The position numbers were made by a program, and so were the translations under genes. The notes under the pieces were generated by a model, which was not told where the DNA came from, made no database searches, and saw only the letters and a program-made list of their open reading frames with translations. From a virus (lineage: Duplodnaviria > Caudoviricetes), in IMG/VR virus record IMGVR_UViG_3300019093_000011, positions 1-57,060 of that record: DNA of 57,060 bases. One strand, given 5' to 3'. Position 1 is the stretch's first letter. Each line of letters opens with the position of its first letter. Of the stretch, positions 5,034-26,623 are shown one piece after another.

Positions 5034-5041
5034 TAATTATA
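5034..5041 (-). promoter_or_regulatory. Putative late promoter (TATAATTA variant), 5 nt before ATG 5028
   Basis: Minus strand reads TATAATTA-ACCAC-ATG; no Shine-Dalgarno. Confidence 0.5.
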
Positions 5042-5043
5042 TA

Positions 5044-5904
5044 TTAGCAAATAGTCGTTGTCAAGTTAGTATTGTCCAACAAACGTGCTAATGGTATGCC
5101 ATCTGCGATTTCTTCCACAGTCCACTCGGTATGAGTAATTTTTTCGAACCATTCAGTCCTATTAGGTAAGTAGGGCTGATTTATTTGATCAATGGTTGTT
5201 GCCACATCATGGGCCAAGCTGGAAATATCAGTAACTATTGGTGTTCCATTGATAGCTGCTTGTATGCCAACACCACTGTTATAATTAATGATAGTAGAAT
5301 ACTCAAAATTTAGGTCATACTTGTCATAAGTGCCCTCAATTTTTTTAGGCATGCTCATGAATATGTTTTTTCCTGTAAAATTACCAATATAAAATCGTGG
5401 ATGGGTTCGAACAATGATATCTCGGCCAGTATGCTCTCTTATCTTTTCTATTTGTGTTAAAACCCAATCATGCACAGTCAAAGGTGTTGTCCATTGAAGG
5501 CTATTTTCGTGCTGTGCTGCGATTAGTATTGGTGCTTGCGGGTCAATTTTTCGAGTAACCAGCTCGATACCTAATTTTTTGCCTCTGTTTGGATCTAAAT
5601 TTTCCTTATTGGCATAATTACCATATTTTGTAATATTGTTTAGGGCAACTTTCCAAGTTCTTCCACGATCCAATGCACCAACTTCCAATATAAAAACAGG
5701 TTTTCCTTGTTTTCTATAATGTTCGTAGACTAAGTGATTTTTTTGCATTCTTCCCTGCCATAGTACGCTCCATATTAGAGCAGCATCTGAGTCCATGCTG
5801 TTTTCTACGGCACTAATTTTAAATTTTTTGCAGCTATCCAAAAAACTTTGCCAAATTGGTTGAGATTTTTGAGCTGTTTGGTCTGGAAAATAGGATATAT
5901 ACAT
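5044..5904 (-). CDS. GT-B-like glycosyltransferase (capsule-synthesis KpsS/KpsC-like)
   Basis: IIVRTHP and INYNSGVGIQAAINGTPIV motifs typical of the capsule polysaccharide synthesis family. Confidence 0.6.
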   Translation of the reverse strand: MYISYFPDQTAQKSQPIWQSFLDSCKKFKISAVENSMDSDAALIWSVLWQGRMQKNHLVYEHYRKQGKPVFILEVGALDRGRTWKVALNNITKYGNYANKENLDPNRGKKLGIELVTRKIDPQAPILIAAQHENSLQWTTPLTVHDWVLTQIEKIREHTGRDIIVRTHPRFYIGNFTGKNIFMSMPKKIEGTYDKYDLNFEYSTIINYNSGVGIQAAINGTPIVTDISSLAHDVATTIDQINQPYLPNRTEWFEKITHTEWTVEEIADGIPLARLLDNTNLTTTIC

Positions 5905-5911
5905 ATATTAT

Positions 5912-5919
5912 TATTTAAT
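5912..5919 (-). promoter_or_regulatory. Putative late promoter (ATTAAATA), 7 nt before ATG 5904
   Basis: Lies in the 16-bp divergent intergenic gap; TAAATA core. Confidence 0.4.
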
Positions 5920-5920
5920 C

Positions 5921-6717
5921 TTGAAACTGCCACCTTTATTAGGGGAATTCCCCCAAACTGACGTTTGTTTTTATGTAGCTGCTGATGAAACGTATTTTAA
6001 TCAGCATGCCAAACCGTTGATTCACAGTATTAGACAGTATTTTTCATATCCCATACACTTTCATTTATATAATCCCAGTGATGCGTCAAAAAAATGGTGC
6101 GAAGTCAATGATATTGATTATAGTTATGAAGTAGTTGATGTAAAAATTGTTGATCCAGCATTTAAAATTTACCGTAACATGCCTACTGATATAGAATTGC
6201 AGCGTCGGCGTAGTAAAATGATCAAGCCTGGTGAAAATGTTGAAAAAATTCGTAATGAGTTGATGAAAACTTATTATGCCTGTACTAGATTTGTAAGATT
6301 AAGTGAATTATTGGTTAACCCTACTTACGTTATTATGTTAGACACTGATAGTTTAGTTAGAAATAGATTTGACTTATTAAGTAAGGATTCTGACATTCAT
6401 ATCTATGAAAAAAATCATCGAAGCCATGTAAATTATACGCAACATTGGCCAGTACTATATTTTATACTGGTACGCAGGGTAGTTATGACTTAATGCAAGA
6501 TCATGCTCGACTAATTAGAGAGGAATATGCCAAAGACACACTATATTGGTTTTTAGATCAAGAAACATTAGACATAGCCATACAAAAATATTCTAAACAG
6601 CCATTAGCGTTAAGTTTTGTAGATTTTGAAATGAAAGACGCCAGTAACATATGGTGCGCCAAAGGTCCTAGAAAGAATCTGTCTATCTGGCTCGAAGAAG
6701 TTAAAAATTACCTATAA
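5921..6717 (+). CDS. GT-A (GT8/nucleotide-diphospho-sugar transferase-like) glycosyltransferase, interrupted by a 1-nt frameshift near 6445
   Basis: ORFs 5921-6493 and 6445-6717 join as ...TQH-LASTIFYTG... if one T is added to CATTGGCC. The first half has MLDTDSLV (DxD) and the second has WFLDQETL. Confidence 0.65.
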
Positions 6718-6720
6718 ATA
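6713..6720 (+). promoter_or_regulatory. T4-type late promoter TATAAATA
   Basis: Exact consensus overlapping the GT stop codon, 24 nt upstream of ATG 6745. Confidence 0.6.
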
Positions 6721-6744
6721 TATGTAATTGTTTTTGGATAGATT

Positions 6745-7368
6745 ATGAATATTATTAATGAACGTACTGAACCTGCTATTATAGATTTTGAAATTCCATC
6801 TTTATCAAAAATTGATTTTGATAAGTTATATAGTTACCCCCCAATAGAGCAGAAGTATAATACATTGTACGTGAATCCTGGAAGGTATGATTTACCATAT
6901 CATACTCCAGAACATATTGAGTTATGCCACTTTCTTGAAAGAGACTTATATGATATTTTTAAAAAACTTATGGAAATGGATCAATTTCGTTGGCCAATTT
7001 TAGATACAGGGTTTCAAAATTTTGATTGTTTTTATAGAACAAAAGTTAAAAAAGACCAAGGACTATATCTATCAGTAATGATATACAAGCCTGGCTTTTC
7101 TATGCCGTGGCATTTAGATAATAGATTTGCTGTACTTAACGGAATTATTAATGTCAATGACCATGAAACACAGACATGTTTTTCTACAACAGGCCAAGGA
7201 TGGAATCAGGATACTCAATGTCCTTTAAATGAACACATGATTATTCATCGTGGCACAAAAAAGAAATTTCAAGGAACTGCTTGGACAAACAATGAATTAG
7301 CTTGGCATTGTGTTCCCAAAGTACCTATAGAAAGAAAAGTAATATTATTTGGTGTTAACCTTAGGTAG
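6745..7368 (+). CDS. 2OG-Fe(II) oxygenase superfamily protein
   Basis: WHLD (HxD), distal WH, and a downstream R (ERK) in a beta-rich C-terminal half. Confidence 0.75.
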   Translation: MNIINERTEPAIIDFEIPSLSKIDFDKLYSYPPIEQKYNTLYVNPGRYDLPYHTPEHIELCHFLERDLYDIFKKLMEMDQFRWPILDTGFQNFDCFYRTKVKKDQGLYLSVMIYKPGFSMPWHLDNRFAVLNGIINVNDHETQTCFSTTGQGWNQDTQCPLNEHMIIHRGTKKKFQGTAWTNNELAWHCVPKVPIERKVILFGVNLR

Positions 7369-8044
7369 GACGTAAGTATATAATACACATATCACACCCT
7401 TGAATAATTTCCCCGTCTGGCCGTGTAATAGTTGACGGGCATTCTAACGAAAAAGTTAAATTATTAGCAATACAAAAATCTAATGTCGTTTTTTTAATTC
7501 CCATATATACACAGTCATCAACCAAAATTATTCCTGATTTTTTCATATTAGCATGTGCATATGACAAATCAGCTAACAATGAATCAGTTGAATGGTCGCC
7601 GTCTATTATAATAAGATCAACATTAGCTACATCCATGGTATGCCAATTTCCCTCAAATAGAGCAAGATTGGTACAATTATTTTTATATATCTGTTGTATT
7701 TTTACAAGGGAATTAGCTTGAATGTTAACAGCTGGATACCAATCCTGTATCATTTTTAAATGTTTGTCATGATCAAGTTTTGTGAAATACACTTCAAAAT
7801 CATTTATATCGGCTGTAACAATTGATTTATCGGGAAAAATTTTAGCCAGTTTATACGCTGTACCACCAGCAAAGGTACCGATCTCAAGTATATTATTTAA
7901 ATTATATTTGTTTATAGTATTAATAATAAATTCTAATTTAACCCCTCCTATTAAAGATAAGGGGTTATTTATGAATATTTCTTCTATAAAAAAGTTATCT
8001 AACTGATTATCAAATTCATACATATTAAATCCATTCTGTGCCAT
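7361..8044 (-). CDS. Class I SAM-dependent methyltransferase (Methyltransf_24-like); start may be ATG 8023
   Basis: ILEIGTFAGGT, IIDGDHS and GIILVDD motifs. Confidence 0.85.
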   Translation of the reverse strand: MAQNGFNMYEFDNQLDNFFIEEIFINNPLSLIGGVKLEFIINTINKYNLNNILEIGTFAGGTAYKLAKIFPDKSIVTADINDFEVYFTKLDHDKHLKMIQDWYPAVNIQANSLVKIQQIYKNNCTNLALFEGNWHTMDVANVDLIIIDGDHSTDSLLADLSYAHANMKKSGIILVDDCVYMGIKKTTLDFCIANNLTFSLECPSTITRPDGEIIQGCDMCIIYLRPT

Positions 8045-8657
8045 CTTTATTAAAGCTTTTTCCGCTATCTGTTTTTTTCAAAGTTGATATCACTTTATGA
8101 ATTTGTTCTGAATCCTTTACATAATCTTCTAATGGAAACCATGATGGGTTTAATGCAAAAAATATACCTCGATGATTTTGACTAAACCCGCGCATTATGT
8201 ATAAGTTCGTTGCTTTGTGGCTAGCATAGCCAGCATGTTTAAAATATTCAGGATTATTGCCGACTATTAAACCGGTCATCATCCATCCTATTTTAGTATC
8301 ATCAGTGATAGACTGAGATAAATGTTTAATCAAAAAATATGGAAGTTGACAATCGATCCACATGTTACGATTCCATGAATCAATTGAATATTCATTACCG
8401 GGGATAAACCAATATTCGCCAACGCTACCACCTGCATTTTGATTGAAAAAAATCAAATCATAAGTTACTGAGTTGTCAATTAAAGTTTGTAATTGCTCTA
8501 GATTTGATTCATGCCAGTTAATCTTTATTACGTTAACGTTAGGATATTCAAAATTAGAACCTGTAACAAGGTCAACTTGGTATCCTATGTCAGATAAATG
8601 TTTAGTAAATGATGCTCCCCATTTGGATCCGCATCCTAATAATAGTGCTTTTTTCAT
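8025..8657 (-). CDS. Short-chain dehydrogenase/reductase-like Rossmann protein
   Basis: N-terminal LLGCGSKWG glycine loop, FFNQNAG, catalytic YASHK (YxxxK). Confidence 0.75.
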   Translation of the reverse strand: MKKALLLGCGSKWGASFTKHLSDIGYQVDLVTGSNFEYPNVNVIKINWHESNLEQLQTLIDNSVTYDLIFFNQNAGGSVGEYWFIPGNEYSIDSWNRNMWIDCQLPYFLIKHLSQSITDDTKIGWMMTGLIVGNNPEYFKHAGYASHKATNLYIMRGFSQNHRGIFFALNPSWFPLEDYVKDSEQIHKVISTLKKTDSGKSFNKDGTEWI

Positions 8658-8662
8658 AAGTA

Positions 8663-8670
8663 TATTTATA
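8663..8670 (-). promoter_or_regulatory. T4-type late promoter TATAAATA, 5 nt before ATG 8657
   Basis: Exact consensus; minus strand reads TATAAATA-TACTT-ATG. Confidence 0.6.
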
Positions 8671-12210: not shown

Positions 12211-13595
12211 ATGTTTTTGCACTCATTAATAAATTCTATATACTCTGGAAATACTAAATTGAAATCAGTTTTTCTACGACGGTCGTGCTCTATAAAAAAT
12301 GCTGCAAAATCAGATTTTGCATTTGCTAGCTCATCATCAAACAATTTGTATTGCTTCATAGAAGATAATACACGTTCTAATCTTTCAACTTCAACTTTAG
12401 TGAACCCTGTATAATTTTCAGTTATATTTGACTTCATAAATTTAATATCTTCTTCTAAATATTTTTGAAAACTATCAGGCAATATATTAATGGTCCAATG
12501 TGCTGGTTCTTTTAAATGAGGCGTACAAAAATCTATCCGTTGTTGTGTCTGACTAAATTCTTGACGCCATTCTAAAATTTTTTCTAATAACGATCTAAAA
12601 GAAGCGACCGCTAAATTATTGTAAGTAATCATAATTTCTATACTAGCATCAACATTTTTAAAATCATATAATATAGTTTTGAAATTTTCTTCCCATATGC
12701 TACAATCTAAACCAAATCTAATATATTCTGCTGGTGCTCCCCATGTATCTAAACTTACATGCATACGGAAATTTTTGATACATTTAGTTTGAAGTAAATA
12801 TTGAACTTTCTTCCCTAAACGTTGAATCAATGCAGGTTTCACTCCCAAATTACTGTTAACTAACAATGTCATATTAGGGCAGGGATCTTTTTCTAATTTA
12901 TCTAATAATTGCCAAGTATTCTGATTTAGCATAGGCTCTCCGCCAGTGATGCGTAACGTTTGCAAATTTAATTTAAGTGTCGGCCACCATTGCCAAAATG
13001 CTTTTACGTATGGATTATTTTCATCATTGCTTTCGTAGTATTCTCTATCTTTAAGAAAATCTATACTGTATTGTTTACTTTTTATAGGGTAATCACCATG
13101 CTCTTTTATTTCTTCAATCCAAGAATTACTTACTGTTGGGGTACAATATCCGCATTTAAAATTACACACATTTCCAAAATTAACTTCAATCAATTTAGGG
13201 TCATAATTTGCATCCCATGGTAATTTTTTAATAATATTATAATCATCACCATTCATTGCTGGTTGAACATGGGTTGTTGTATGATGACTACTATGAATAA
13301 CTCTATCAGATAGATGACCAGTGTCTTCCACTTTCCAACAATAATGGCATTCTTGCGGTCTACCGCCCTCTAACATTATTTTTCTCTGTTCTTTTTTATA
13401 TTGTGTATTATGTAACCCACTAGGATTATTTTCAATATCGGCGGGCTGTATTTTATGAGGGAACGGGTGATAGCAACTGTGATTATCCCCAGATTGCAAA
13501 TACAATGTTTGTTGAGTCCATTTTAATAAACAAAATCCAGGGCCAACTTTATCCAATTGTAATTTAGTTTCATTAATGTGTTCAATAGAATTCAT
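12207..13595 (-). CDS. Radical SAM enzyme with N-terminal SCYHP-type twitch domain (rSAM-4)
   Basis: FCLLKW...SCYHP...CHYCW; CNFKCGYC; TGGEP. Confidence 0.9.
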   Translation of the reverse strand: MNSIEHINETKLQLDKVGPGFCLLKWTQQTLYLQSGDNHSCYHPFPHKIQPADIENNPSGLHNTQYKKEQRKIMLEGGRPQECHYCWKVEDTGHLSDRVIHSSHHTTTHVQPAMNGDDYNIIKKLPWDANYDPKLIEVNFGNVCNFKCGYCTPTVSNSWIEEIKEHGDYPIKSKQYSIDFLKDREYYESNDENNPYVKAFWQWWPTLKLNLQTLRITGGEPMLNQNTWQLLDKLEKDPCPNMTLLVNSNLGVKPALIQRLGKKVQYLLQTKCIKNFRMHVSLDTWGAPAEYIRFGLDCSIWEENFKTILYDFKNVDASIEIMITYNNLAVASFRSLLEKILEWRQEFSQTQQRIDFCTPHLKEPAHWTINILPDSFQKYLEEDIKFMKSNITENYTGFTKVEVERLERVLSSMKQYKLFDDELANAKSDFAAFFIEHDRRRKTDFNLVFPEYIEFINECKNI

Positions 13596-15687: not shown

Positions 15688-17107
15688 GTTTTTTTCTTTC
15701 ATATGTTTCATAAGTTTCTTTACATAATTTAGCAAATGATTCATACAACGGAAAAGTTTTAATTAAATCAAGTTTACTTCTCTTATCATATTCAGTAAAG
15801 AAAACATGAAAATCTCTTCGTCCGCGGGTAATTAAATCTTCTGTGATTTTTGGGCCGCCCTCATTGAAGTAATCCATAACACGTTTAAATTTTTCAATTT
15901 CAACGTTGGCAAATTTAGTTGGATCATAATTGTCACCTTGACAGTTTAACCGCATAAATTCTAAATCATCTTCTAAATATTTACCAAAAGAATCTTTTGG
16001 TAAAATATTGATCATCCAGTGTGGAGGTTCTTTTAAGTATGGGGTATCAAATGTGATTCTTTGCCAATTATTGGTACTATATTTGGCACGTAACTCAAGT
16101 ATCTTTTCTAGTAATGGACGAAAGTATGCTACGCATAATATATTATAAGTGATCATAAACCCAATTTGAGAATTAGGTAGCAATGTCAAAAATTTATTTA
16201 AATTAGTTTCCCATAATTTACAATCAAGTCCTCGACGCATGTATTCTGCTTGCTCGCCCCAACTGTCTATACTGGTAAACATCTTAAATCCTTTAATCTT
16301 TCCAAGAGCTAACAGTTTTTTAACTTGAGTAATCATTCTCTCTACTCTAGAAGTAGCAACCCCTAAATTACTATTAATTATTAAAATTAAATTAGGGGCT
16401 GGTTCTTCCTCTAATTTATCTAATAATTTAAAAGTACTAGGATGCATTAATGCTTCACCACCGGTTAAGCGCAGTACTCTTAGATCATTACGTAAACTAG
16501 GCCACCATTCCCAAAATGCAGCAACATAGGGATTATTTTCATCATCAGGATAATAACTACCACTATCTAAAAATTCAATCCCATACTGATTATATGTTAA
16601 ATCGTAATTACCCTTCTTTTTAATTTCTTCAATCCATAGAGTACTGGACTGCGGGCAACAATATCCACAATTAAAATTACAGTTGTTACTGAAACTCATT
16701 TCTAAATAATAAGGATTATAATTTTTATCCCATGGTTGATTTTTTATTAATTCAATTTCTTTATCAATGTCTTGTAGCCATTCACTTGAATTATGCAATG
16801 CTCTATCACTAAAATGTTCGCCGGTCAAATCCTCTATATTCCAACAATAATAACATTCATCAGGGCGATTGCCTTCTAGCATAGTTTTTCGTTGTTCTTT
16901 TTTCCATTTAGTATTATGTAAAGCTGATACATCAACTTTTATTTCTTCTAAAGGTACTTTATTTGGCCTTGGATGATAACATGAATGATTATCCCCGGTA
17001 TGTAAGTATAAAGTCTCATGTCTCCATTTCTGGAGGCAAAATCCTTTGCCAACTGCATTTAATTTTTCTTTAACTGATCTTAATTTATTGATATAATTGT
17101 CGTTCAT
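15674..17107 (-). CDS. Radical SAM enzyme with N-terminal SCYHP-type twitch domain (rSAM-6)
   Basis: FCLQKW...SCYHP...CYYCW; CNFNCGYC; TGGEA. Clear paralogue of rSAM-4. Confidence 0.9.
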   Translation of the reverse strand: MNDNYINKLRSVKEKLNAVGKGFCLQKWRHETLYLHTGDNHSCYHPRPNKVPLEEIKVDVSALHNTKWKKEQRKTMLEGNRPDECYYCWNIEDLTGEHFSDRALHNSSEWLQDIDKEIELIKNQPWDKNYNPYYLEMSFSNNCNFNCGYCCPQSSTLWIEEIKKKGNYDLTYNQYGIEFLDSGSYYPDDENNPYVAAFWEWWPSLRNDLRVLRLTGGEALMHPSTFKLLDKLEEEPAPNLILIINSNLGVATSRVERMITQVKKLLALGKIKGFKMFTSIDSWGEQAEYMRRGLDCKLWETNLNKFLTLLPNSQIGFMITYNILCVAYFRPLLEKILELRAKYSTNNWQRITFDTPYLKEPPHWMINILPKDSFGKYLEDDLEFMRLNCQGDNYDPTKFANVEIEKFKRVMDYFNEGGPKITEDLITRGRRDFHVFFTEYDKRSKLDLIKTFPLYESFAKLCKETYETYERKKHDLC

Positions 17108-17108
17108 T

Positions 17109-18674
17109 TTAAAAATCTTTATTATAAATTACGTTACACTCTTCTAAATAAAACTTTAACTCAGGGAAAATTTCATTAAAATTTTTATTCTTTCTTTTAT
17201 CATATTCAGTGATGAATAAGTAAAAATTCAGTTTATTTATTCTCTTAATCTGCTCTGGCAAGTCGTCCTCCATAATAGCTAAATCTCTTTTTAATTTTAA
17301 AATTTCATAAGGTTTGAACCCTTCAAGAGTCTCACTATAATTTTCATCTTGAACATTATCTTCCATAAATTTAATGCATTTTTTAACTTGGTCAATACCA
17401 TATTTTCCAGCATTTTGAACACTAAGCCAGTCTGGTTTATATAATATAGGCACATCAAACCATATTCTTTGAAATTTTCTTCTTAGAATAGGAGGATGAT
17501 CTATTCCATGACTTGGTGGGGAATTAACAAATTTTTCCTTTTGTGTTCTCCCGCCAAACTCTCTTCTTAATTCTAAAATTAATTCTAAAAAATTTTGTAA
17601 TTTTGGTATACTTAAAATATTTAAAGTATTAATAAAGCTAACAGTGGTATACTCTGTTTCATTTAAAAATCTTCTTAGATTTTTTAAAAGAGTTGGATAA
17701 CTTAATCCAGATCTTATATATTCTGCTTGCTCAGCTACAGAGTCTAAACTAATATATAACCAGAAATGTTTAAAGCCCTTATCCACATAGCAATGATTAC
17801 CGCTATGCTCGTTAAAATTATCTTTGTCCTCATAAGTGCGGATAGCTTCAATTGCTTGCACTTTACTAATAAATCGATCAAACAATTTAGGATCTGGCGG
17901 ACACATATTACTGGTAATACTTAGTTCTAATTGTCCGTGAGGATTTTCATTCACGTAGTCCAATACCTTGAATGTATTTTTATCCATCAATGGCTCGCCA
18001 CCGGTCATACGAAACACCCGCAGATTACGATATATCTCTGGCCACCAACGCCAAAAAGCTTCAACATATGGATTTTCTTTATTAGACAACTTTAATGGCA
18101 TAAGACCTTTTCTTTCTAAAGCTTCCAAATTATTATGAGTTTTAAATCCAGTTTCAGAATATATTTCATATGGTCCAAATTGCTTTATTTCATCTTCCCA
18201 AGTGGTACTAAGATGGGGACTACAATACATACATTTAAAATTACAACTTTGATTAAAGTTAACTTCTACATATCTAGGCTTTATGTTTTCATCTAAAGGA
18301 TTTTGTACAATTTTATCAAAATCTGGGTGTGCCCACCATTCACTACTTCTATAATGTCTATCACTCAAATGACTTTCATCATTTTCACTTTTGGCGTCTT
18401 CAATTTTCCAACAATAAGAACATCCATCTGGTCGTTCTCCAGAAATCATCTGTTTTCTATCGTGTAATTTAATTACAGTATTATGCAAAGCGCCTGGATT
18501 TTTATCTAAATTCTCCAAAGGTATCCTGTGTGTGGGAGGATGGTAACAACTTTGAGTTAACCCTTGTGGTAAATGCAAACTTACCTGTGACCATTTAGCT
18601 AAACAAAATGATGGACTTATTTCGTTTAACTTTTGTCTCATTAATTTTGCATGATTGTGATATTCACTAGACAT
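17109..18674 (-). CDS. Radical SAM enzyme with N-terminal SCYHP-type twitch domain (rSAM-7)
   Basis: FCLAKW...SCYHP...CSYCW; CNFKCMYC; TGGEP. Confidence 0.9.
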   Translation of the reverse strand: MSSEYHNHAKLMRQKLNEISPSFCLAKWSQVSLHLPQGLTQSCYHPPTHRIPLENLDKNPGALHNTVIKLHDRKQMISGERPDGCSYCWKIEDAKSENDESHLSDRHYRSSEWWAHPDFDKIVQNPLDENIKPRYVEVNFNQSCNFKCMYCSPHLSTTWEDEIKQFGPYEIYSETGFKTHNNLEALERKGLMPLKLSNKENPYVEAFWRWWPEIYRNLRVFRMTGGEPLMDKNTFKVLDYVNENPHGQLELSITSNMCPPDPKLFDRFISKVQAIEAIRTYEDKDNFNEHSGNHCYVDKGFKHFWLYISLDSVAEQAEYIRSGLSYPTLLKNLRRFLNETEYTTVSFINTLNILSIPKLQNFLELILELRREFGGRTQKEKFVNSPPSHGIDHPPILRRKFQRIWFDVPILYKPDWLSVQNAGKYGIDQVKKCIKFMEDNVQDENYSETLEGFKPYEILKLKRDLAIMEDDLPEQIKRINKLNFYLFITEYDKRKNKNFNEIFPELKFYLEECNVIYNKDF

Positions 18675-18680
18675 TTAAAT

Positions 18681-19586
18681 TTAATCTCTTTCTATTAAAT
18701 CAACTCTATTATGAGTCTGATATACTATTTTAAAAAACTTAGATTGTATACTACCCAAAGAGGCCACACTCAAATCTAAATTATTAACTAATTCTTTTGC
18801 ATAAAAATCTAATCGTTCATCAAGATCAACGTCTTTAACTTGAGCATGCCACATATCTGTTAGGTAATCAAAATCACGTACATTACGATAATCCCAATCA
18901 GTTAAATTGGTCATATAACAGCCTTGTCTAGCACCCATCATAGCCCATAAGCCGTTATTAACATCACTACCAATATTACACCAAATCATTAACCTATGCA
19001 AATTTTTCCAATGTACACCTTCTTTTACAGTGACTTTAGTTAGCTTGGCTCCACGGTCTAAGCTCATTTTTACGCCTTCCCTAAATCCTGCTCGCCATGC
19101 TTGAAAAGGTGTGGCATTGTTATGCACATCACTATAACAACCATTCATTTGAATATATTGGTTATCCCAACAGAAATCAACTTGACCTACACTGTCTTTG
19201 GGATCAGCGTTTTCATGTGTACGCATGTTCATGACGAAATCCACAGTCCAACATTTTAACCCGCCATTGCCATACATTAGGCCATTGATGATATTGTATC
19301 CACTCCAACTGATCACGCTGTTTTCTAAATTGGGATATTTGGTCATGTCTATTTCTATGTTTAGAAAATCTGAACGAACTATATTATCGCCGTCTACTGT
19401 GGTAAATCTTGGAGTTTCACTTAATTGAGCACAGGCTTTGTGGGCACTGTCACTGCCTTTGACCCCATGTACACGCTTGGCCCAAGGCACTTTGGTCAAT
19501 AAATCTGCATAATTTTTCTCAGCATTTGGTTCATCATAACTGAGATATATGATATCATAATCGAGGGGTCTAAATACTTTTGTCAT
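18681..19586 (-). CDS. GT-A fold glycosyltransferase-like protein (GT2-like)
   Basis: IIYLSYDE first strand, GSDSAH..A helix, then VDGDNIV DxD motif. Confidence 0.6.
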   Translation of the reverse strand: MTKVFRPLDYDIIYLSYDEPNAEKNYADLLTKVPWAKRVHGVKGSDSAHKACAQLSETPRFTTVDGDNIVRSDFLNIEIDMTKYPNLENSVISWSGYNIINGLMYGNGGLKCWTVDFVMNMRTHENADPKDSVGQVDFCWDNQYIQMNGCYSDVHNNATPFQAWRAGFREGVKMSLDRGAKLTKVTVKEGVHWKNLHRLMIWCNIGSDVNNGLWAMMGARQGCYMTNLTDWDYRNVRDFDYLTDMWHAQVKDVDLDERLDFYAKELVNNLDLSVASLGSIQSKFFKIVYQTHNRVDLIERD

Positions 19587-20242
19587 ATTTTTGTTCTAAT
19601 ATATTGATATTTTTCAAAGAGTTTTCTTGCATACACACTTACTCTGACTTCATCTTCATCTACTCGATCAAATGGCAATATGCAATAAAAGTTATTGATT
19701 AATTTGGTCATAGGAATTCGTAATGTTTTATATAACACGTTAGGGTCATTAAATTCTGTTAGGTAAATCTCGTAAGTTTGATCAAAATATAATTTTCTAT
19801 CACGTAATGATCGTGCCAGTGTGCCATTAATGAATACTTTCCAGCAAGTTTCTGCATAATCTTGTACGACAGTGATATCGTTAGTGGGATCATAATTTAA
19901 GGGAACGCTTGTATCTACTGTATATGGAAATTGAAATATTACGTCATGAACACTTTGTAATATTTCCTCTTGCTCATCTAATCGAATAAATGTATAGTCC
20001 TTAGCATCTGGACTGAAAATAACTTTATAGTTATGGATAACATCTGTGCCTTCTAATAAGTTTTTAACTTGACTAAAATTCACTGTGACTGATGGCAATG
20101 TCTGATCATTGGCCATATTGGAAATGCCTTTTATTTCACCAGTTTCAGGCTCATAAAAGACAAATCTAAAATCATCTTGTTTAAATTTGTTATTGTAGGA
20201 TTTTAAATCCTCTTCAGTGATGTCCCATTCTACTTGTAACAT
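19583..20242 (-). CDS. Hypothetical protein in the glycosyltransferase block
   Basis: 219 aa, coupled to the flanking GT genes; VFYEPETGEI motif. Confidence 0.7.
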   Translation of the reverse strand: MLQVEWDITEEDLKSYNNKFKQDDFRFVFYEPETGEIKGISNMANDQTLPSVTVNFSQVKNLLEGTDVIHNYKVIFSPDAKDYTFIRLDEQEEILQSVHDVIFQFPYTVDTSVPLNYDPTNDITVVQDYAETCWKVFINGTLARSLRDRKLYFDQTYEIYLTEFNDPNVLYKTLRIPMTKLINNFYCILPFDRVDEDEVRVSVYARKLFEKYQYIRTKI

Positions 20243-21085
20243 TTAGTTAATTCCTGTGATTTTTTCTAATTGATGTATTATGTAATCTGTTAAAAAACTA
20301 TATTCTGTATAATGAAACAAGCCGTGTTGTTGGTAGTTACCTATTTTAAGTTCGCATTTTTTATTGAAATATGCCCCAATACTATCTTGCCAAGACTCAT
20401 TGGGACTCTCCCAATTTTGAATCATAGGCTTCATATGTGTAAAAGTTATGGGAGCATTTTTATGACTGATTAAATTTTCACAATCTAAAATCTTAGCAGC
20501 CAAACTCACTGTGACATCCATACTGGGAAATTTAGGATAATTTACATTGACATAACGTCCATAAAATAACTCCCAATTATTATTGATATCCTCAACCCAA
20601 TTGAAATATTCTTTAGCAAACTCGCTCTTTTTAAAATAAGCAGTGCCAAAATAAAAATTTGGCAAATTGTTACTGTCAAATGTTTTTCTATAGTATCTAC
20701 CAGTTATAGTTTTTCCTCTATAATCTAATACATTACTAGTTAACAATACGTCATAATTTTTTGCATAGTCCCACCAAAGATCTAAATTGGAGAAGGCTAA
20801 CATATCAGCATCTAATACAATAGTTTCATCGTATGGGCTGCAATGATAAAGTTTCCATCTATCTTCTGTCTTAAAGATAGTGTCTGATTTATTTTGATCA
20901 CGCCAAGGAACTGAAACTATTTGATCAAATACCAAACGATATTTGTCAGGAATTTTATTGTCAGTGACCAAGCTTATATCAGCATCAGGCATATGATTTT
21001 TAATACTTAAAGCCAACGCATAGGCAGATCGTGTATATTTTTTTAATTTAGCATCTTCAGCAAAAATTAGAAATCCTTTAGACAT
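20243..21085 (-). CDS. GT-A (GT8-like) glycosyltransferase
   Basis: AYALALSIK, SPYDETIVLDADML (DxD), FTHMK. Confidence 0.75.
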   Translation of the reverse strand: MSKGFLIFAEDAKLKKYTRSAYALALSIKNHMPDADISLVTDNKIPDKYRLVFDQIVSVPWRDQNKSDTIFKTEDRWKLYHCSPYDETIVLDADMLAFSNLDLWWDYAKNYDVLLTSNVLDYRGKTITGRYYRKTFDSNNLPNFYFGTAYFKKSEFAKEYFNWVEDINNNWELFYGRYVNVNYPKFPSMDVTVSLAAKILDCENLISHKNAPITFTHMKPMIQNWESPNESWQDSIGAYFNKKCELKIGNYQQHGLFHYTEYSFLTDYIIHQLEKITGIN

Positions 21086-23390
21086 TTAATTCCTCATTTA
21101 ATATTCTACTAATACTGAATTTATTCATTACATGAACATTGATACCATTAGTTTTCATAACTGTATATTCGCCTCGATACTTTTCTTTTTCAATTAAAAA
21201 TTTCATTTCAGTATCAGTATGTTCAAGCAATATGTCTTTATCAATAGTATAGTATAATTTGCCAGGTAAATTATGTGCCCATGAGCCGTTTTGATATCCA
21301 TTCATAACATGTATTGCAATACTAAAAGCAAAGTCATTTCTATATAAGCTTTGTTCTATTTGATAGACATATCTATAGTAGTTCCAATTTTCTTGTATAT
21401 GATTTAGATAATCAAAGAAAATTTCTGTGTTTTTATTTTTTCTAAAGAAAAACACAGTTGCCCAATAGAAGTCAATACTTTTATCACTTAGGGTAACTAG
21501 TCTTGGATCGTATCTATATCCGCTGAGATCTACAGCTTGTTTATGTATTAGAAAATCGTGTGGTTGTTTCCAGCAATATTGTAATATGTCATTGTTAATT
21601 AGATAATCGCAATCAATGACCAATGTTTCGTCAAATGGACTTAATTCAAAACTTTTAACACGAATATCATTTTTAAATCTTAGTTTTTTATGGGTCATTG
21701 CTCCGTCAAAATATTGACGATATTGAGGCGCACAATCATAAACTAAAAATCTTTCTTTAGTATTTTCCCACAAATCATATCTAATTTTGTCTTTAGTGTT
21801 ATGTGCAAGATCATAATTGATCAATGACATCCACAAAACTCTTTCATGAAATAATATATCACCTTTATTAAATTTGGTTTGCTGCGTTAATTCTTTAACA
21901 TTTTCTAAAACAACATCATATTGAACAAGACTAAATTCTTCTTTTTCTTCATATTCAGTGTGGCATCTATATAAAGTATTTTCATGCCAAACATGTTGTC
22001 CTACTAAGTAAGGCAAATTAGGATACCATTTGTCAATGTCAATACCTTCATAAACTCTAGTAAAATTATCTTCAATTTTATAAGTTTTCTGAATATCAAT
22101 ATTAGTTATGATTTCCTTTTTTCTCAGTCCATTAATATCACTCATCCAAAGACTACGATTAAAAAGAATGGTGTTACCTTTGGTTATTTCTTCTATAATG
22201 TCACCATCTTGAACATTTTCTAATATAATATCATATTGATTGATGCTAAACTCTTCTTTTTCTTCATATTCAGTGTGACATCTATATAAAGTATTTTCAT
22301 ACCATACGTGTTGTCCTGCCAAGTAAGGTAAATTAGGATACCACTTGTCAATGTCAATGCCTTTATAAACTGGCTCAAAATCTTCAATATTGGACGATAT
22401 AGTTTCTTTCTTTATATTAAATTTACTCATCCACAATTTGCGAGCATGTAAGACCACATCGCCTTTGGATAACTCTTCTATAACTTCACCATCTTGAACA
22501 CAATCAATTAATGAAATATATTTGTCTTTGCTAAAAGTTTCACCTTCAGTGTATTGGATAGCGCATCTATATAAAGTATTTTCATGCCATACGTGTTGCC
22601 CTACTAGGTAAGGTAAATTAGGATACCATTTGTCAATGTCAATACCTTCATATACTTTAGTAAAATTGTCTTCATTAATATTGATGATATATTTGGTCTG
22701 AGTTTCCTGTTTTTGTCTATCAATTTTGCTCATCCACAAATTGCGAGCATATAAGACCACATCACCTTTAGTTATTTCCTCTATAGTTTCACCGTCTTGA
22801 ACACGATCAATTAATGAAATATATTTGTCTTTACTAAAAGTTTCACCTTCAGTATATTGTATTGTACATCTATATAAAGTATTTTCATACCATACGTGTT
22901 GTCCTACCAAGTAGGGTAAATTAGGATACCACTTGTCAATGTCAATACCTTCATATACTGGATTAAAATCTTCTTGATTAAAAGAATAGGTTTCCAGTTT
23001 ATCTTCAATAATCTCAAAATCCTTAAGAATCTCAAAATCCTTAAGAATTTTGATTTCCTCAACGTTTTCAATAACCTCAATAGCTTCAATAATCTCAGGG
23101 CCTTCATTGACTTTACGCCATATAGTGCCATTATAAAATGCCAAACTACCTACAGGATATTGCCACGTTGGTGCCCAAGGCTGCACTTCTGCTTCTCGAA
23201 CAACTTTTATGACCATGTCAACATCATCTTTGTAATTGGGGTATTGTTGATATAACCAATCAGCACTGTCTGTGACTAGGGCTACAGGCACGCCCAAATG
23301 CTGTTTTACTTGCCTTGCTGCATTTAAGGCTAATTTAGCATAGTCAATCTGCTCATTGTTTAGAGCATAGATTAGAACTCCTTTGCTCAT
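21078..23390 (-). CDS. GT-A (GT8-like) glycosyltransferase with a large internal insertion of CBM5/12-like repeats
   Basis: N-terminus (GVLIYA..., VALVTD) and C-terminus (SPFDETLVIDCDYL, YRNDFAFS, HVMNK) parallel the adjacent 280-aa GT. About 480 aa of repeats lie between them. Confidence 0.75.
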   Translation of the reverse strand: MSKGVLIYALNNEQIDYAKLALNAARQVKQHLGVPVALVTDSADWLYQQYPNYKDDVDMVIKVVREAEVQPWAPTWQYPVGSLAFYNGTIWRKVNEGPEIIEAIEVIENVEEIKILKDFEILKDFEIIEDKLETYSFNQEDFNPVYEGIDIDKWYPNLPYLVGQHVWYENTLYRCTIQYTEGETFSKDKYISLIDRVQDGETIEEITKGDVVLYARNLWMSKIDRQKQETQTKYIININEDNFTKVYEGIDIDKWYPNLPYLVGQHVWHENTLYRCAIQYTEGETFSKDKYISLIDCVQDGEVIEELSKGDVVLHARKLWMSKFNIKKETISSNIEDFEPVYKGIDIDKWYPNLPYLAGQHVWYENTLYRCHTEYEEKEEFSINQYDIILENVQDGDIIEEITKGNTILFNRSLWMSDINGLRKKEIITNIDIQKTYKIEDNFTRVYEGIDIDKWYPNLPYLVGQHVWHENTLYRCHTEYEEKEEFSLVQYDVVLENVKELTQQTKFNKGDILFHERVLWMSLINYDLAHNTKDKIRYDLWENTKERFLVYDCAPQYRQYFDGAMTHKKLRFKNDIRVKSFELSPFDETLVIDCDYLINNDILQYCWKQPHDFLIHKQAVDLSGYRYDPRLVTLSDKSIDFYWATVFFFRKNKNTEIFFDYLNHIQENWNYYRYVYQIEQSLYRNDFAFSIAIHVMNGYQNGSWAHNLPGKLYYTIDKDILLEHTDTEMKFLIEKEKYRGEYTVMKTNGINVHVMNKFSISRILNEELNV
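21830..22975 (-). repeat. Four ~300-bp tandem coding repeats
   Basis: GGATACCAYTTGTCAATGTCAAT recurs at 22021, 22336, 22621 and 22924, encoding GIDIDKWYPNLPYL(V/A)GQHVW(Y/H)ENTLYRC. Confidence 0.95.
23010..23048. repeat. Perfect 18-bp tandem duplication (ILKDFE x2)
   Basis: AATCTCAAAATCCTTAAG twice, followed by AAT. Confidence 0.9.
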
Positions 23391-23734
23391 TGAGTCAATG
23401 CCTCTACGCTTCTATTCTTTTTAAGCAGTTGATAATCGTTATAATAACTGTTTGAAGCAATAAAATATTGATCAATTACGTCATCTAAAAATTGTTGTAA
23501 ATCACTTACTCTAACTGGCAAGTCGTTGTCGTCAATTACCACAACATCAGTGATATTGCCCATGTCAATAAGAGTTTTCAAAAAAGTGATGAGATCTTTA
23601 GTAATAGTAAATGTGCCACCATTTTGATAGTAGACACAATCAGTATGATATTTTTCTTTTAGGGCTCGTTTTTGATTATTTAGAGTTACCATAAAGTTGG
23701 CAAACTCTAGAGCCTTTTCCAGTCTTTCGTCCAT
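23387..23734 (-). CDS. Hypothetical protein, first gene of the GT/radical SAM operon
   Basis: 115 aa with AGGAG RBS; ATGA-coupled to the GT gene. Confidence 0.8.
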   Translation of the reverse strand: MDERLEKALEFANFMVTLNNQKRALKEKYHTDCVYYQNGGTFTITKDLITFLKTLIDMGNITDVVVIDDNDLPVRVSDLQQFLDDVIDQYFIASNSYYNDYQLLKKNRSVEALTQ

Positions 23735-23737
23735 AGA

Positions 23738-23774
23738 AACTCCTGCATTGTATATTAATTATCTGCTAGGAGTT
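23738..23774 (-). promoter_or_regulatory. RBS-sequestering hairpin with a late-promoter-like GATAATTA (23756-23763) in its loop
   Basis: Minus strand: AACTCCT-A-GCA-[GATAATTAATATACAA]-TGC-AGGAGTT-TCT-ATG; 7+3 bp stem covering AGGAG. Confidence 0.6.
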
Positions 23775-24738: not shown

Positions 24739-24746
24739 TATTTATA
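24739..24746 (-). promoter_or_regulatory. T4-type late promoter TATAAATA
   Basis: Exact consensus followed by GAGAGGA RBS and ATG 24723. Confidence 0.65.
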
Positions 24747-26592: not shown

Positions 26593-26611
26593 TCCCTAAA
26601 CCCCTTTAGAA

Positions 26612-26619
26612 TATTTATC
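26612..26619 (-). promoter_or_regulatory. Late promoter GATAAATA
   Basis: In the intergenic gap, 19 nt upstream of ATG 26592. Confidence 0.55.
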
Positions 26620-26623
26620 AAAA

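Follow-up and report, generated by a model that had tools for sequence, protein, structure and literature searches.

Gene content of the locus

The DNA analysed here is a genome fragment of a lake-water (freshwater) jumbo myovirus, a phage placed in this group by its baseplate protein. Within the window (the whole stretch of 57,060 nt), the tail-fibre genes (23788-31332) include a minus-strand block, 24742..31332, in which Pfam identifies the phage tail Collar domain (2.4e-11) and PHROG identifies tail-fibre and virion-structural families. Immediately 3' of these genes on the same strand follow, in this order, U115, G770, G280, U219, G301, R7, R6, the SGNH-like ORF, S5, R4, R3, R2, R1, the SDR-like ORF and the methyltransferase (Table 1). 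ORF and family annotation thus agrees with the gene order given by a first-pass annotation made from the sequence alone. The 16 genes from T311 to the methyltransferase are separated by gaps of at most 53 nt. Transmembrane-grade hydrophobic stretches are absent from every island protein (maximum 1.45), and all are predicted to be soluble.

Table 1. Features of the fibre module and the downstream island
Feature	Coordinates	Strand	Remarks
T621, tail-fibre-type gene	29467-31332	-	upstream of island
T947, tail-fibre-type gene	26624-29467	-	upstream of island
T616, tail-fibre-type gene	24742-26592	-	upstream of island
Exact T4-type late box	24739..24746	-	15 nt 5' of T311 start codon
T311, last fibre-module gene	23788..24723	-	conserved immediately 5' of core
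U115, small conserved protein	23387..23734	-	first of core; family in 31/81 loci
G770, GT8 paralog of G280	21078..23390	-	~500 aa of CBM5/12-type repeats inserted after residue ~43
G280, GT8-fold glycosyltransferase	20243..21085	-	DAD motif, residues 92-94
U219	19583..20242	-	between GT8 and GT-A genes
G301, GT-A-fold protein	18681..19586	-	DGD motif (D65, D67); C-terminal half helical
R7, N-twitch rSAM	17109..18674	-	NF033640 277 bits; head of array; best conserved paralog
R6, N-twitch rSAM	15674..17107	-	NF033640 296 bits; long subfamily
SGNH-like ORF	14860..15744	-	GDS motif; Lipase_GDSL E 0.15, DUF6071 E 0.079, both below cutoff
S5, rSAM with C-terminal SPASM domain	13592..14863	-	Pfam Radical_SAM 6e-6, SPASM 1.1e-5
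R4, N-twitch rSAM	12207-13595	-	NF033640 294 bits
R3, N-twitch rSAM	10987-12222	-	NF033640 300 bits
R2, N-twitch rSAM	9828-11012	-	NF033640 310 bits
R1, N-twitch rSAM	8666-9904	-	NF033640 350 bits
Exact late box	8663..8670	-	overlaps R1 stop codon; 5 nt 5' of SDR-like start
SDR-like ORF	8025..8657	-	BLASTP 1e-10 to L029 ORF (adh_short, 32 bits)
Class I SAM methyltransferase	7361..8044	-	Pfam Methyltransf_24 9.8e-9, 36.5 bits (cutoff 26.3)
207-aa ORF	6745..7368	+	exact late box upstream
Exact late box	6713-6720		precedes 207-aa ORF
Single gene, split in assembly	5921..6717	+	one-base difference at 6444
286-aa ORF, virus-only family	5044..5904	-	

All seven radical SAM (rSAM) genes that had been proposed are genuine members of this superfamily. 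Six score 277-350 bits against NCBIfam NF033640, a family with an N-terminal twitch domain (cutoff 170 bits), and S5, with only 52.7 bits in that search, carries rSAM and SPASM domains according to Pfam. Orthologs of R7 are present in 80 viral loci at 34-67% identity, and C24, C43, C85, C88 and C144/C148/C151 are invariant among 33 sequences. R6 is 50% identical to R4 and 35% to R7, and the paralogs of the R4/R3/R2 block show 20-29% identity to R1. The best solved sequence relative is a RiPP cyclopropyl-synthase rSAM-SPASM enzyme (8vpo, 1.5e-12), matched in the core only (profile positions 109-352); the paralog profile also matches BlsE (9e-5), MoaA and viperin.

Five ORFs had been called glycosyltransferases (GTs). 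A Pfam search at E<=10 returned no match identifying any of them as such, and the assignment holds at the fold level for three, G280, G770 and G301, in which DxD-type aspartates are conserved. The AlphaFold2 model of G280 (pLDDT 90.1) matched 404 chains in Foldseek at E<=0.001, with glycogenin at the top (1.5e-8) and with LgtC, which gave the best TM-score (0.56), and the UGGT catalytic domain also present; D94 is invariant in 28 sequences. G770 aligns with G280 by BLASTP over its C-terminal part (5e-9) and its N-terminal 42 aa (1e-4), and the intervening region matches CBM_5_12 (27.7 bits, cutoff 26.2) and includes a tandem repeat of 2.4 copies of a 303-nt unit. In G301 (pLDDT 87.5), the GT-A fold spans residues 1-160, with VIA Z of 9.6/9.3 to B4GALNT1 and STIV A197 and Foldseek matches to SunS (4.3e-4) and PBCV-1 A64R (7.7e-4). 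Its nearest fold matches include the protein- or peptide-glycosylating SunS/ThuS, A64R, GalNAc-T2 and COLGALT1, and the fold also resembles the nucleotidyltransferases MobA and IspD (Z about 8.5).

For the two remaining candidates, the GT reading found no confirmation. The product of 5044..5904 has no match in Pfam, PHROG or NCBIfam, and the Atlas places it in viral clusters, one of which, at rank 10, bears PF05159 on 18%. At 5921..6717, an extra T after 6444 is present at full depth in all three covering sequencing runs, and Pfam and further searches yielded no GT evidence.

Among the proposed tailoring genes, the methyltransferase is confirmed by Methyltransf_24. The SDR-like ORF is probably a short-chain dehydrogenase, judging by its similarity to the adh_short ORF of a related locus; Pfam and PDB searches gave no direct match. 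The SGNH claim is weak, with a GDS motif and a sub-cutoff Lipase_GDSL score; this ORF is a dispensable cassette, and one metagenome contig joins 14886 directly to 15690, lacking it. Pfam, PDB and BLASTP searches did not support the reading of the 207-aa ORF as a 2OG oxygenase. T311 matched nothing in Pfam or PHROG, and its family occurs in 30/81 loci. U219 is likewise without a match in family searches (Pfam, PHROG) and has a homolog in 0/80 related loci. U115, which also has a homolog in RsoM2USA, is possibly a fibre-assembly helper; the Atlas offers DUF4376, at 0.90 only.

Late control had been proposed from boxes at four sites. The exact T4-type sequence TATAAATA is found at 8663 and 6713, within the island, and not at 23756 or 5912; a further exact copy lies 5' of T311 and is a candidate promoter for the entire run. 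The window contains 5 exact boxes (16.45 expected), and 4 of these 5 are correctly oriented and sit 5-24 nt 5' of a start codon. Across loci, an exact box precedes U115 in 6/30 cases, but rSAM genes in 0/321, G301 in 0/100 and GT8 genes in 0/66, so that the module reads as a single operon fed from the fibre end.

Related loci in phages and bacteria

The synteny of the island recurs, beyond chance, in dozens of related contigs, although the loci are not independent, many coming from a few close lineages. The conserved core consists of U115, two GT8 genes, G301 and R7, and is found behind the fibres in many relatives, including the cultured Ralstonia phage RsoM2USA. Of the partner genes, G301 keeps most faithfully to the rSAMs: its family accompanies the anchor rSAM in 66/80 loci and lies at most 2.6 kb upstream in 37/71. 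The number of rSAM copies ranges from 1 in RsoM2USA through 7 here to 12-14 above cutoff in two near-complete relatives (G001, G004). The expectation that the GT core beside the fibres is constant and the rSAM cassette variable was borne out. Linkage to structural genes was found in part: of the 58 loci whose upstream sequence reaches 7 kb or more, 26 have a fibre-module gene no further than 8 kb upstream of the anchor rSAM and 32 do not. In one lineage (G005), the array is ~50 kb from the nearest and only G301-like gene, and the fetched flanks of 8/80 loci contain neither GT nor fibre nor sugar genes.

The recurrent neighbours, together with the three GT-fold proteins, support the earlier suggestion of a sugar or glycan pathway. 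Pfam analysis of representatives of 72 recurrent families identified Epimerase/GDP_Man_Dehyd (GDP-mannose-dehydratase-type) and carbamoyltransferase genes in 13 loci each, UDPG/GDP-Man dehydrogenase in 11 + 4, PMM (phosphomannomutase) and DegT aminotransferase in 6 each, M6P-isomerase/cytidylyltransferase in 5 and an IscA-type Fe-S carrier in 9, as well as NTP_transferase, SDR and 2OG oxygenase families. A complete relative of 352 kb has a carbamoyltransferase and a G301-domain protein next after the array, and an epimerase/dehydratase and DegT ~15 kb on.

The NF033640-type family is also expanded in predatory Bdellovibrionota, to 7-20 copies per genome, and in one sampled genome the array adjoins a surface-glycan locus. 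Among bacteria, a 7-gene array (G006) abuts PMT_2 (GT-C), UDPG dehydrogenase, GT2 and Asn-synthase-type (AsnB-type) genes; at one locus (L115), four GT2 genes, one DegT and one G301-like gene surround the rSAM. In Halobacteriovorax (3/74 cellular loci), a PqqD-type peptide-recognition protein comes after the rSAM, and then a protein with an endosialidase-chaperone (Peptidase_S74) domain typical of fibres.

A probable sugar decoration and its proposed acceptor

The island probably makes an unusual sugar decoration. Sugar as the substrate is fairly well supported, although for the rSAMs it is guilt by association, because NF033640 has no characterised member. We tentatively favour a soluble, late-expressed cassette for glycan building and radical editing, with a virion acceptor as the most likely target. 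Late transcription would run on from the tail-fibre operon into the island, whose products would be cytoplasmic. The two GT8 enzymes, one with carbohydrate-binding-type repeats, and G301 would transfer sugars to the acceptor; each N-twitch rSAM paralog would then perform one radical step on sugar residues, and the methyltransferase, SDR-like and SGNH-like proteins may provide extra tailoring. The radical steps would most plausibly be oxidation or epimerisation, by analogy with the twitch/SPASM rSAM sugar-tailoring enzymes BtrN, NeoN, HygY, AprD4, DesII and BlsE. These share the rSAM core and an auxiliary [4Fe-4S] domain with the island enzymes and occur in clusters with GTs, aminotransferases and SDRs; in the island, however, the auxiliary domain is N-terminal, the similarity is that of the generic core and the tandem paralogs number up to 14. 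The array beyond R7, a lineage-specific extension that varies cassette by cassette, would diversify the product. As the acceptor we infer a protein of the virion, probably one of the distal parts of the fibre encoded on the same transcript.

It is unlikely, albeit compatible with several observations, that the enzymes instead change the LPS, O-chain or capsule of the infected cell, for example, to block superinfection, the fibre-side site being an insertion-tolerant hypervariable region. GT8 enzymes also build LPS cores, and the LOS enzyme LgtC is the best TM-score match of G280, which accords equally well with this target; the bacterial homologs lie in surface-glycan-type loci, and the 32 testable loci without fibre linkage point the same way, as does the same reading given to GT8-rich clusters of pelagimyophages in the part of PMC7029224 that deals with them. 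However, Pfam, NCBIfam and hydrophobicity analyses detected no membrane protein, initiating phosphoglycosyl transferase, flippase, polymerase or ligase in the island, the sole promoter signals found are late-type, which is poor timing for exclusion functions, and the core is locked in place right after the fibre genes in lake phages and a soil Ralstonia phage alike.

Somewhat less probable still is direct modification of protein, whereby the rSAMs would introduce cross-links, epimerise amino-acid residues or functionalise C-H bonds in fibre or other structural proteins, which the GTs would glycosylate independently. The top PDB match is a RiPP maturase, the RiPP rSAM-SPASM maturases PapB, CcpM and XyeB appear among the secondary NCBIfam matches, and the Halobacteriovorax arrangement is suggestive; yet the RiPP matches cover the generic rSAM core alone with far sub-threshold scores, no PqqD/RRE homolog was detected by tblastn and Pfam in the window and the 80 viral loci, the arrays showed no recurrent short Cys-rich ORF, and the recurrent neighbours are sugar-nucleotide enzymes.

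We consider it improbable that the product is a diffusible metabolite (a modified sugar, an aminocyclitol or a nucleoside-type compound) used to manipulate the host or competitors. BtrN-type twitch rSAMs do act in aminoglycoside pathways, the profile matches to BlsE, MoaA and viperin involve enzymes of nucleosides and nucleotides, and carbamoyltransferase, DegT and SDR neighbours are compatible with such pathways; a cyanophage trio of DegT, amidinotransferase and rSAM is indeed read as 'antibiotic synthesis genes' in the relevant part of PMC12801897. But the island lacks exporter and resistance genes, an rSAM family with 12-14 paralogs seems unlike known small-molecule clusters, and neither the island's tight place in the fibre operon nor the CBM-type repeats carried by a GT would be accounted for.

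Hypermodification of DNA, with GTs glycosylating modified phage bases and rSAMs tailoring the adduct, is highly improbable, and the first-pass annotation had likewise favoured a virion substrate over DNA. DNA-glycosylating phage GTs are described as well known, and one related lineage has its array beside genes of nucleotide metabolism (UvdE, ligase, a QueC-like fragment and an adenylosuccinate-synthetase-like gene), but positive evidence for DNA was not found, the fetched flanks yielded no gene of the hydroxymethylase or DpdA/TGT type in linkage with the GT core, the core lies in the late structural region, and its neighbours are nucleotide-sugar rather than base-modification enzymes.

Precedents

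The closest parallels for the favoured virion acceptor are PBCV-1 and mycobacteriophages, in neither of which, to our knowledge, does virion glycosylation involve rSAM enzymes. In PBCV-1, soluble virus-encoded GT-A enzymes (A64R and others) act in the cytoplasm on structural proteins, and A64R is in the top three Foldseek matches of G301. For the phage described here, by contrast, virion glycosylation is our interpretation. Mycobacteriophage capsid and tail glycosylation is among the work cited in PMC12619734. The RiPP rSAM-SPASM maturases provide the best solved-structure match in sequence (cyclopropyl synthase, PDB 8VPO, PMC10878394), but the island has no RRE or precursor peptide, and 6 of its 7 enzymes lack a C-terminal SPASM domain.

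The designation 'candidate new system' was overstated. Such rSAM cassettes have been mentioned in three papers, only briefly and without analysis; examples are a fibre-linked hypervariable region of T4-like marine phages, in the passages concerned of PMC7029224, and the genome of a T4-like marine virus that has 12 rSAM genes and an A-type Fe-S carrier, in those of PMC5332604. The Campylobacter phages CP220/CPt10, also T4-like, carry 11-12 rSAM genes (PMC2853527), and an IscA-type carrier accompanies the arrays here too; the relevant passages of PMC2853527 and PMC5332604 do not tie the rSAM genes to GTs or fibres. In a search of the phage collection at E<=1e-5, RsoM2USA was the sole record matching R7, so there is no close relationship to the rSAMs of the Campylobacter phages.

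The rSAM/GT arrangement is barely studied and is found again in many large phages and in predatory bacteria. The 'host recognition cluster' of pelagimyophages and cyanomyophages (Zaragoza-Solas et al. 2020, PMC7029224) is likewise a hypervariable block downstream of a giant structural gene, of the VrlC type, described in the pertinent section at the annotation level only, with the GTs read as host O-chain modifiers. In contrast, the phage described here groups with jumbo myoviruses, and its rSAMs are assigned to one family, NF033640; we define a conserved core, U115-GT8-GT8-G301-R7, and document arrays with 12-14 copies.

Gene content and predicted late expression of the island

The window is a whole IMG/VR viral contig; its estimated completeness of 16% would put the full genome at about 350 kb. 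Its genes include those for a gp55-type late sigma factor, gp46/47-type nuclease subunits and the baseplate hub and wedge, three genes of the tail-fibre type, and a giant structural gene that is followed by the fibres, GT8-type glycosyltransferase (GT) genes and radical SAM (rSAM) genes. This layout, with a VrlC-like giant gene preceding a block of fibres, GT8 genes and rSAM cassettes, is that of the host recognition cluster of pelagimyophages. Assignment of the phage itself to the pelagimyophages was set aside; the best matches of the wedge come from jumbo myoviruses with genomes of 345-490 kb, namely, Salicola SCTP-2, Agrobacterium Atu_ph07, Cronobacter GAP32 and Klebsiella RaK2 (about 35% identity over >90% of the length). 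No near-identical DNA was detected in the phage collection, and at least half of the sampled words of the island are present in four lake-water metagenome runs. Taken together, the jumbo-type wedge, the gp55-type sigma factor and the lake-water runs mark the window, at the level of sequence, as part of the genome of a freshwater jumbo myovirus whose late transcription is T4-like.

The gene order proposed in the first-pass annotation is correct: 16 consecutive minus-strand genes separated by at most 53 nt extend from T311, the last gene of the fibre module, to the methyltransferase gene. The window contains five exact copies of the T4-type late promoter box, TATAAATA, whereas shuffles predict 16.45, a three-fold depletion that is expected if a functional signal is avoided inside genes. 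Four of the five are followed, after 5-24 nt and on the correct strand, by a start codon; the genes concerned are T311, the SDR-like ORF, the 207-aa ORF and that of the baseplate wedge. The fifth is internal to S5, one of the rSAM genes. Two of the late boxes claimed previously are exact, but the other two are not. The exact boxes before T311, the SDR-like ORF and the 207-aa ORF and the late sigma factor encoded in the same window jointly predict late expression. Across the window and 80 related viral loci, the box is found upstream of 23 of 1,436 genes: it precedes 6 of 30 genes for U115, the small protein that opens the conserved core, and 1 of 30 T311 genes, but none of 321 rSAM, 100 G301 (GT-A-fold) and 66 GT8 genes. 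Thus, the module reads as one operon fed from the fibre end. Sigma-70 promoters (129 vs 115.5 +/- 11.8) and terminators (8 vs 8.3 +/- 2.7) did not exceed chance expectation. A look-up of RNA datasets containing the region 15000-24900 returned none.

Positions of the features discussed, in the window and in related loci
Feature	Position	Description
Late sigma factor gene	54360-55064	gp55-type
Giant structural gene	31967-40666	2899 aa; PHROG 10938
Exact TATAAATA boxes	24739; 8663; 6713	last two claimed previously
Inexact late boxes	23756; 5912	claimed previously
T311	23788-24723	last fibre-module gene
G770	21078-23390	GT8-type, with repeats
SGNH-like ORF	14860-15744	
SDR-like ORF	8025-8657	
Methyltransferase gene	7361-8044	
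207-aa ORF	6745-7368	claimed 2OG-Fe(II) oxygenase
Claimed GT	5921-6717	ORFs 5921-6493 and 6445-6717
Claimed GT	5044-5904	
1,427-aa protein	L092:530-4810 (G001 79.0-83.3 kb)	G301-like GT-A domain
Purine-type genes	L013:2637-3656; L014:2503-3015; L036:6141-7148	
RuBisCO-like ORF	L086:7462-8595	
Porin gene	L091:4249-5130	complete genome G001
rSAM-PqqD arrangement	L146:9001-11207; L148; L157	Halobacteriovorax

Radical SAM paralogs and glycosyltransferase-fold proteins

All seven rSAM genes of the first-pass annotation stand. Six of these (R1-R4, R6 and R7) match NF033640 (N_Twi_rSAM, 'twitch domain-containing radical SAM protein') at 277-350 bits, above the curated whole-protein cutoff of 170 bits, and the seventh, S5, which at 52.7 bits is not a member, combines an rSAM core with a C-terminal SPASM domain. 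The NF033640 model is of the 'subfamily' type, and its name states no function. The CxxxCxxC motif (C144/C148/C151) and the N-terminal C30, C90 and C93 are invariant in the alignment of the six paralogs, as are C24, C43, C85, C88 and C144/C148/C151 in 33 of 33 R7 orthologs. Pfam places SPASM at residues 30-94 of R1, that is, as an auxiliary Cys-rich domain N-terminal to CxxxCxxC.

Identity to R1 is 20-29% among the six paralogs, which fall into a long subfamily (R4, R6 and R7; 33-50% mutual identity) and a short one (R1-R3; 24-28%). A Bacteriovoracaceae gene shares more identity with R7 (44.5%) than do the siblings of R7 in the island, so the duplications are ancient; an origin of the long arrays by recent duplication was set aside given the paralog identity of 20-50%. 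A single search, with 4,135 candidates scored, yielded 2,822 homologs at E<=0.001, nearly all metagenomic and with generic names only; the NCBI-sourced homologs carry no informative names, and none of the 32 pattern matches in a scan of genome contigs with R1 was confirmed. Of the proteins with a solved structure, a RiPP cyclopropyl-synthase rSAM-SPASM enzyme is the closest in sequence (8vpo; 1.5e-12, core only), with MoaA, viperin and BlsE next, and no reaction is readable from these sequence matches; PDB sequence searches with R7 and S5 as queries gave nothing useful.

Among the 13 island ORFs scanned with Pfam at E<=10, none of the five claimed GTs had a match beyond CBM_5_12 in G770, and therefore, the structures of G280 and G301 were predicted from alignments of 28-29 homologs, all from related phages. 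The G280 model (pLDDT 90.1) adopts what is predicted to be a clear GT8 fold of the glycogenin/LgtC type (glycogenin, 1.5e-8; LgtC, 4.2e-7, TM 0.56; 404 chains at E<=0.001), with the DxD motif at D92-A-D94, of which D94 is invariant in 28 homologs (consensus E-A-D). G770, with a DxD-type motif in VIDCD, is a G280 paralog according to BLASTP: its first 42 residues align at 1e-4 and its last 200 or so at 5e-9. Because the Pfam family model is not matched, the GT8 membership of both proteins is assigned by fold rather than by sequence profile. About 500 residues of CBM5/12-like repeats (unit of 303 nt; 2.4 near-identical copies plus diverged ones) are inserted in G770 after residue ~43, an unusual site for a binding module.

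In the G301 model (pLDDT 87.5), residues 1-160 form a GT-A fold that matches B4GALNT1 (Z 9.6, rmsd 3.5, 140 aligned residues) and STIV A197 (Z 9.3), and, in Foldseek, SunS (4.3e-4) and PBCV-1 A64R (7.7e-4); the nucleotidyltransferases MobA and IspD/IspDF, which share this fold, come within 1 unit of the GT matches (Z 8.3-9.0). The DGD motif is conserved, with D67 invariant and D65 present in at least 90%. Complex prediction for R7 and G301 from two alignments scored 0.00 against a mark of 0.32, which counts for neither side. Fold or paralogy backs three of the five claimed GTs, but the two beyond the methyltransferase gene are without support (hhalign probability of 3.4% for the 5921 ORF against the GT8 profile). 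The split of 5921-6717 into two ORFs is specific to this assembly: in contigs from four metagenome runs (region 5000-24900), all three runs that cover the site contain an extra T after 6444, and so these ORFs are one gene.

The claimed tailoring set fared unevenly. The methyltransferase is confirmed. The SDR-like ORF has no Pfam (E<=10) or PDB match of its own and is backed solely via an ORF in a related locus (L029; BLASTP 1e-10) that matches adh_short at 32.2 bits (cutoff 26.6); GCGSKWG and YASHK, candidates for the Gly-rich N-terminal motif and YxxxK of the family, are visible in its sequence. The SGNH/GDSL call is weak: Pfam gives Lipase_GDSL at E 0.15 (12.7 bits vs cutoff 23.6) and DUF6071 at E 0.079, a GDS motif is visible near the N-terminus, the PDB search returned nothing relevant, and BLASTP found no similarity to a DUF6071 ORF. 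The 2OG oxygenase call is unsupported, the 207-aa ORF having no Pfam match at E<=10, no PDB match, and no similarity to the 2OG-FeII_Oxy_3 ORF of a related locus (BLASTP E 1.8); the HxD-like 'HLD' visible in it carries no evidential weight. One metagenome contig from a close relative joins 14886 to 15690 (shorter side 125 nt), with six letters in place of the SGNH-like gene, which is direct evidence of cassette-wise gain or loss. Other joints in metagenome contigs, between rSAM paralogs, have short sides of 21-36 nt.

Related loci in jumbo phages and predatory bacteria

When viral contigs were scanned with R7, 99 of the 101 stretches proposed as candidates were confirmed, and 80 loci were kept; 1,479 ORFs were clustered and the window proteins mapped onto these loci. 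Together with the window, they contain 322 N-twitch rSAM genes, whose most faithful companion is the G301 family, often in two copies. With counts conditioned on the R7-type anchor and flanks of at most 10 kb, and with many of the loci coming from few close lineages and hence not independent, G301 is present in 66 of the 80, GT8 in 34, fibre-module genes in 30, nucleotide-sugar enzymes in 23, and none of these in 8. The recurrent order is A201, fibres, T311, (U115), GT8, GT8, G301, R7 and further rSAMs; in 37 of the 71 loci with sufficient flank, G301 is found no more than 2.6 kb upstream of R7, and in 26 of 58 testable loci, a fibre-module gene is found no more than 8 kb upstream of the anchor. 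The prediction of a constant GT core beside the fibres with a variable rSAM cassette was, thus, largely borne out: the core is conserved and the rSAM tail variable, but fibre linkage is common rather than universal. In one lineage (G005), the array is located about 50 kb away from the sole G301-like gene. The only match to R7 in a tblastn search of the phage collection is the cultured Ralstonia jumbo phage RsoM2USA, in which the fibre genes are followed by U115, GT8, GT8, a small ORF, G301, one R7-type rSAM and a second G301-like gene, all annotated as hypothetical. The paper on this phage neither discusses the module nor contains data on it, and its virion identification covers ten abundant bands only.

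The 100%-complete 352-kb phage genome carries a single 20-kb array with 12 rSAMs above the cutoff and one at 163.6 bits, and four less complete records carry 14, 10, 8 and 7. In the complete genome, genes for an S5-type rSAM, a carbamoyltransferase and a 1,427-aa protein with a G301-like domain come after the array, and those for an epimerase/dehydratase, a DegT aminotransferase and another rSAM lie about 15 kb beyond. Pfam analysis of representatives of 72 recurrent neighbour families identified NAD-dependent epimerase/GDP-mannose dehydratase and carbamoyltransferase (13 loci each), UDP-glucose/GDP-mannose dehydrogenase (11 and 4), 2OG oxygenase and an IscA-type Fe-S carrier (9 each), DUF6071 (7), phosphomannomutase and DegT aminotransferase (6 each), and mannose-6-P isomerase/cytidylyltransferase, NTP_transferase and SDR (5 each).

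A scan with the R7 alignment of one genome per prokaryotic species, which describes the distribution of the long subfamily because its patterns derive from R7, confirmed 131 of 159 candidates and returned 74 loci: 54 from Bdellovibrionota, 3 from 'Deltaproteobacteria', 11 from other taxa, and 6 phage-like. The latter (L097, L106, L109, L110, L152 and L156) show the full fibre-GT-rSAM synteny of phages in MAGs of Betaproteobacteria, Haliscomenobacter, Neomarinimicrobiota, Fischerella and Rickettsiales; these are probably mis-binned phage contigs, so the MAG label is no guide to the host. Five predator genomes (G006-G010; loci L098, L102, L113, L146 and L150) contain 7, 7, 10, 16 and 20 rSAM matches at E<=1e-20, some of them in tandem arrays of 7-8; the family cutoff is exceeded by 55 of the 60, and none of 14 control genomes has a match at this threshold. 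The 16 matches of a 1.9-Mb chromosome include a tandem array of seven and a cluster of eight. The array adjoins PMT_2-type GT-C, UDPG/GDP-Man dehydrogenase, GT2 and Asn-synthase-type amidotransferase genes as well as a further rSAM, whereas the cluster includes SDR, aminotransferase and phosphogluco/mannomutase genes and is surrounded by ABC, S9-peptidase and FtsH genes. In another bacterial locus, four GT2 genes, DegT and a G301-like gene surround the rSAM. A literature search for rSAM expansion in predatory Bdellovibrionota, with coverage that excludes subscription journals, found no paper.

Candidate products of the island and other genes of related loci

Twitch-domain sugar enzymes such as BtrN, NeoN and HygY oxidise or epimerise their substrates. 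Given the recurrence of GT and nucleotide-sugar genes next to the rSAMs in two unrelated kinds of genomes, the rSAM substrates are probably sugars. We tentatively propose that the island is a soluble, late-expressed cassette in which GT-fold enzymes would build a glycan and the rSAMs would then edit its sugars by radical chemistry, perhaps by oxidation or epimerisation, by analogy with the known sugar enzymes; taken whole, this reading is somewhat more likely to fail than to hold. The operon position, the late boxes, the soluble enzymes (no island protein contains a transmembrane-grade hydrophobic stretch), the absence of lipid-carrier machinery (neither flippase, polymerase, ligase nor initiating transferase was seen in the island or its context) and the protein-glycosylating fold neighbours make a virion protein a possible, still doubtful acceptor.

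Remodelling of the host envelope, which we consider unlikely, is the function favoured, as host O-chain modification, for the fibre-linked host recognition cluster of pelagimyophages, where GT8 genes are accompanied by rSAM cassettes that differ between close relatives (PMC7029224). Modification of the fibre polypeptides themselves appears less likely still. In 3 of the 74 bacterial loci, all from Halobacteriovorax, the gene after the rSAM codes for a PqqD-type RiPP-recognition protein, and next comes that for a 144-aa endosialidase-chaperone (Peptidase_S74) protein; this arrangement may represent a peptide- or fibre-directed branch of the family. Neither the window nor the 80 viral loci contained anything like it: there, Pfam and tblastn with the Halobacteriovorax PqqD, of limited sensitivity to divergent RREs, detected no PqqD, and ORF clustering revealed no recurrent small ORF family in the arrays that could encode a precursor peptide. 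A small-molecule product of the cassette seems improbable, and hypermodification of DNA can hardly be what it does.

Radical SAM enzymes are costly, oxygen-sensitive catalysts, and a phage that spends 10-20 kb on 7-14 diverged rSAMs of one family and, in some lineages, supplies an Fe-S carrier of its own must draw a substantial gain. If the product is a virion glycan, radical chemistry would be added to viral glycobiology, and the way in which abundant jumbo phages of freshwater and the sea recognise their hosts would become accessible at the molecular level. As the family is large and has no assigned reaction, one biochemical assay would annotate thousands of genes, and its expansion in predatory bacteria offers cultured, genetically tractable test organisms, array carriers in culture including Halobacteriovorax marinus and Bacteriovorax stolpii relatives. 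The parallel expansion in phages and predators hints at a common strategy of agents that attach to Gram-negative cells. A bolder version, which we regard as speculative and probably wrong in its full form, is that N-twitch rSAM arrays are a shared toolkit of cell invaders, with which jumbo phages (up to 14 paralogs) and Bdellovibrionota (up to 20) edit displayed sugars residue by residue after glycosyl transfer, on adhesion fibres or the cell surface. The resulting glycans would be stereochemically scrambled in ways beyond the reach of nucleotide-sugar pathways, and would tune the recognition of prey or host or hide fibres from enzymes and receptors. No earlier case of a virus diversifying glycans by radical SAM chemistry would then precede it.

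Numerous rSAM genes have been reported previously in a 183-kb T4-like viral genome (12, with an A-type carrier; PMC5332604) and in Campylobacter phages (11-12; PMC2853527). In their accessible text, neither these reports nor PMC7029224 assign the rSAM family, define the core or tie it to GT-A and GT8 folds. Searches on N-terminal twitch rSAMs in viruses or NF033640, on rSAM-bearing jumbo phages and on radical SAM enzymes of Bdellovibrio found nothing in the literature outside subscription journals.

Several further genes were noted in the related loci. The 1,427-aa protein downstream of the array in the complete genome has a G301-like GT-A domain and no Pfam match, and similar large fusions are present in two other records (G003 and G004). 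In one lineage, the array neighbours an adenylosuccinate-synthetase-like gene (340 aa), a QueC-like fragment and an IMPDH/GMP-reductase gene, which may point to non-canonical purine metabolism. A viral ORF family represented in 6 loci matches the catalytic domain of the RuBisCO large chain (1.4e-35). Finally, a porin of the Gram-negative type (Porin_4, 1.4e-22) is encoded in the complete jumbo phage genome; genes for a MoxR-type AAA ATPase and a DUF2201 metallopeptidase/VWA pair lie a short distance downstream of it, and a GH113-like gene lies beyond these.
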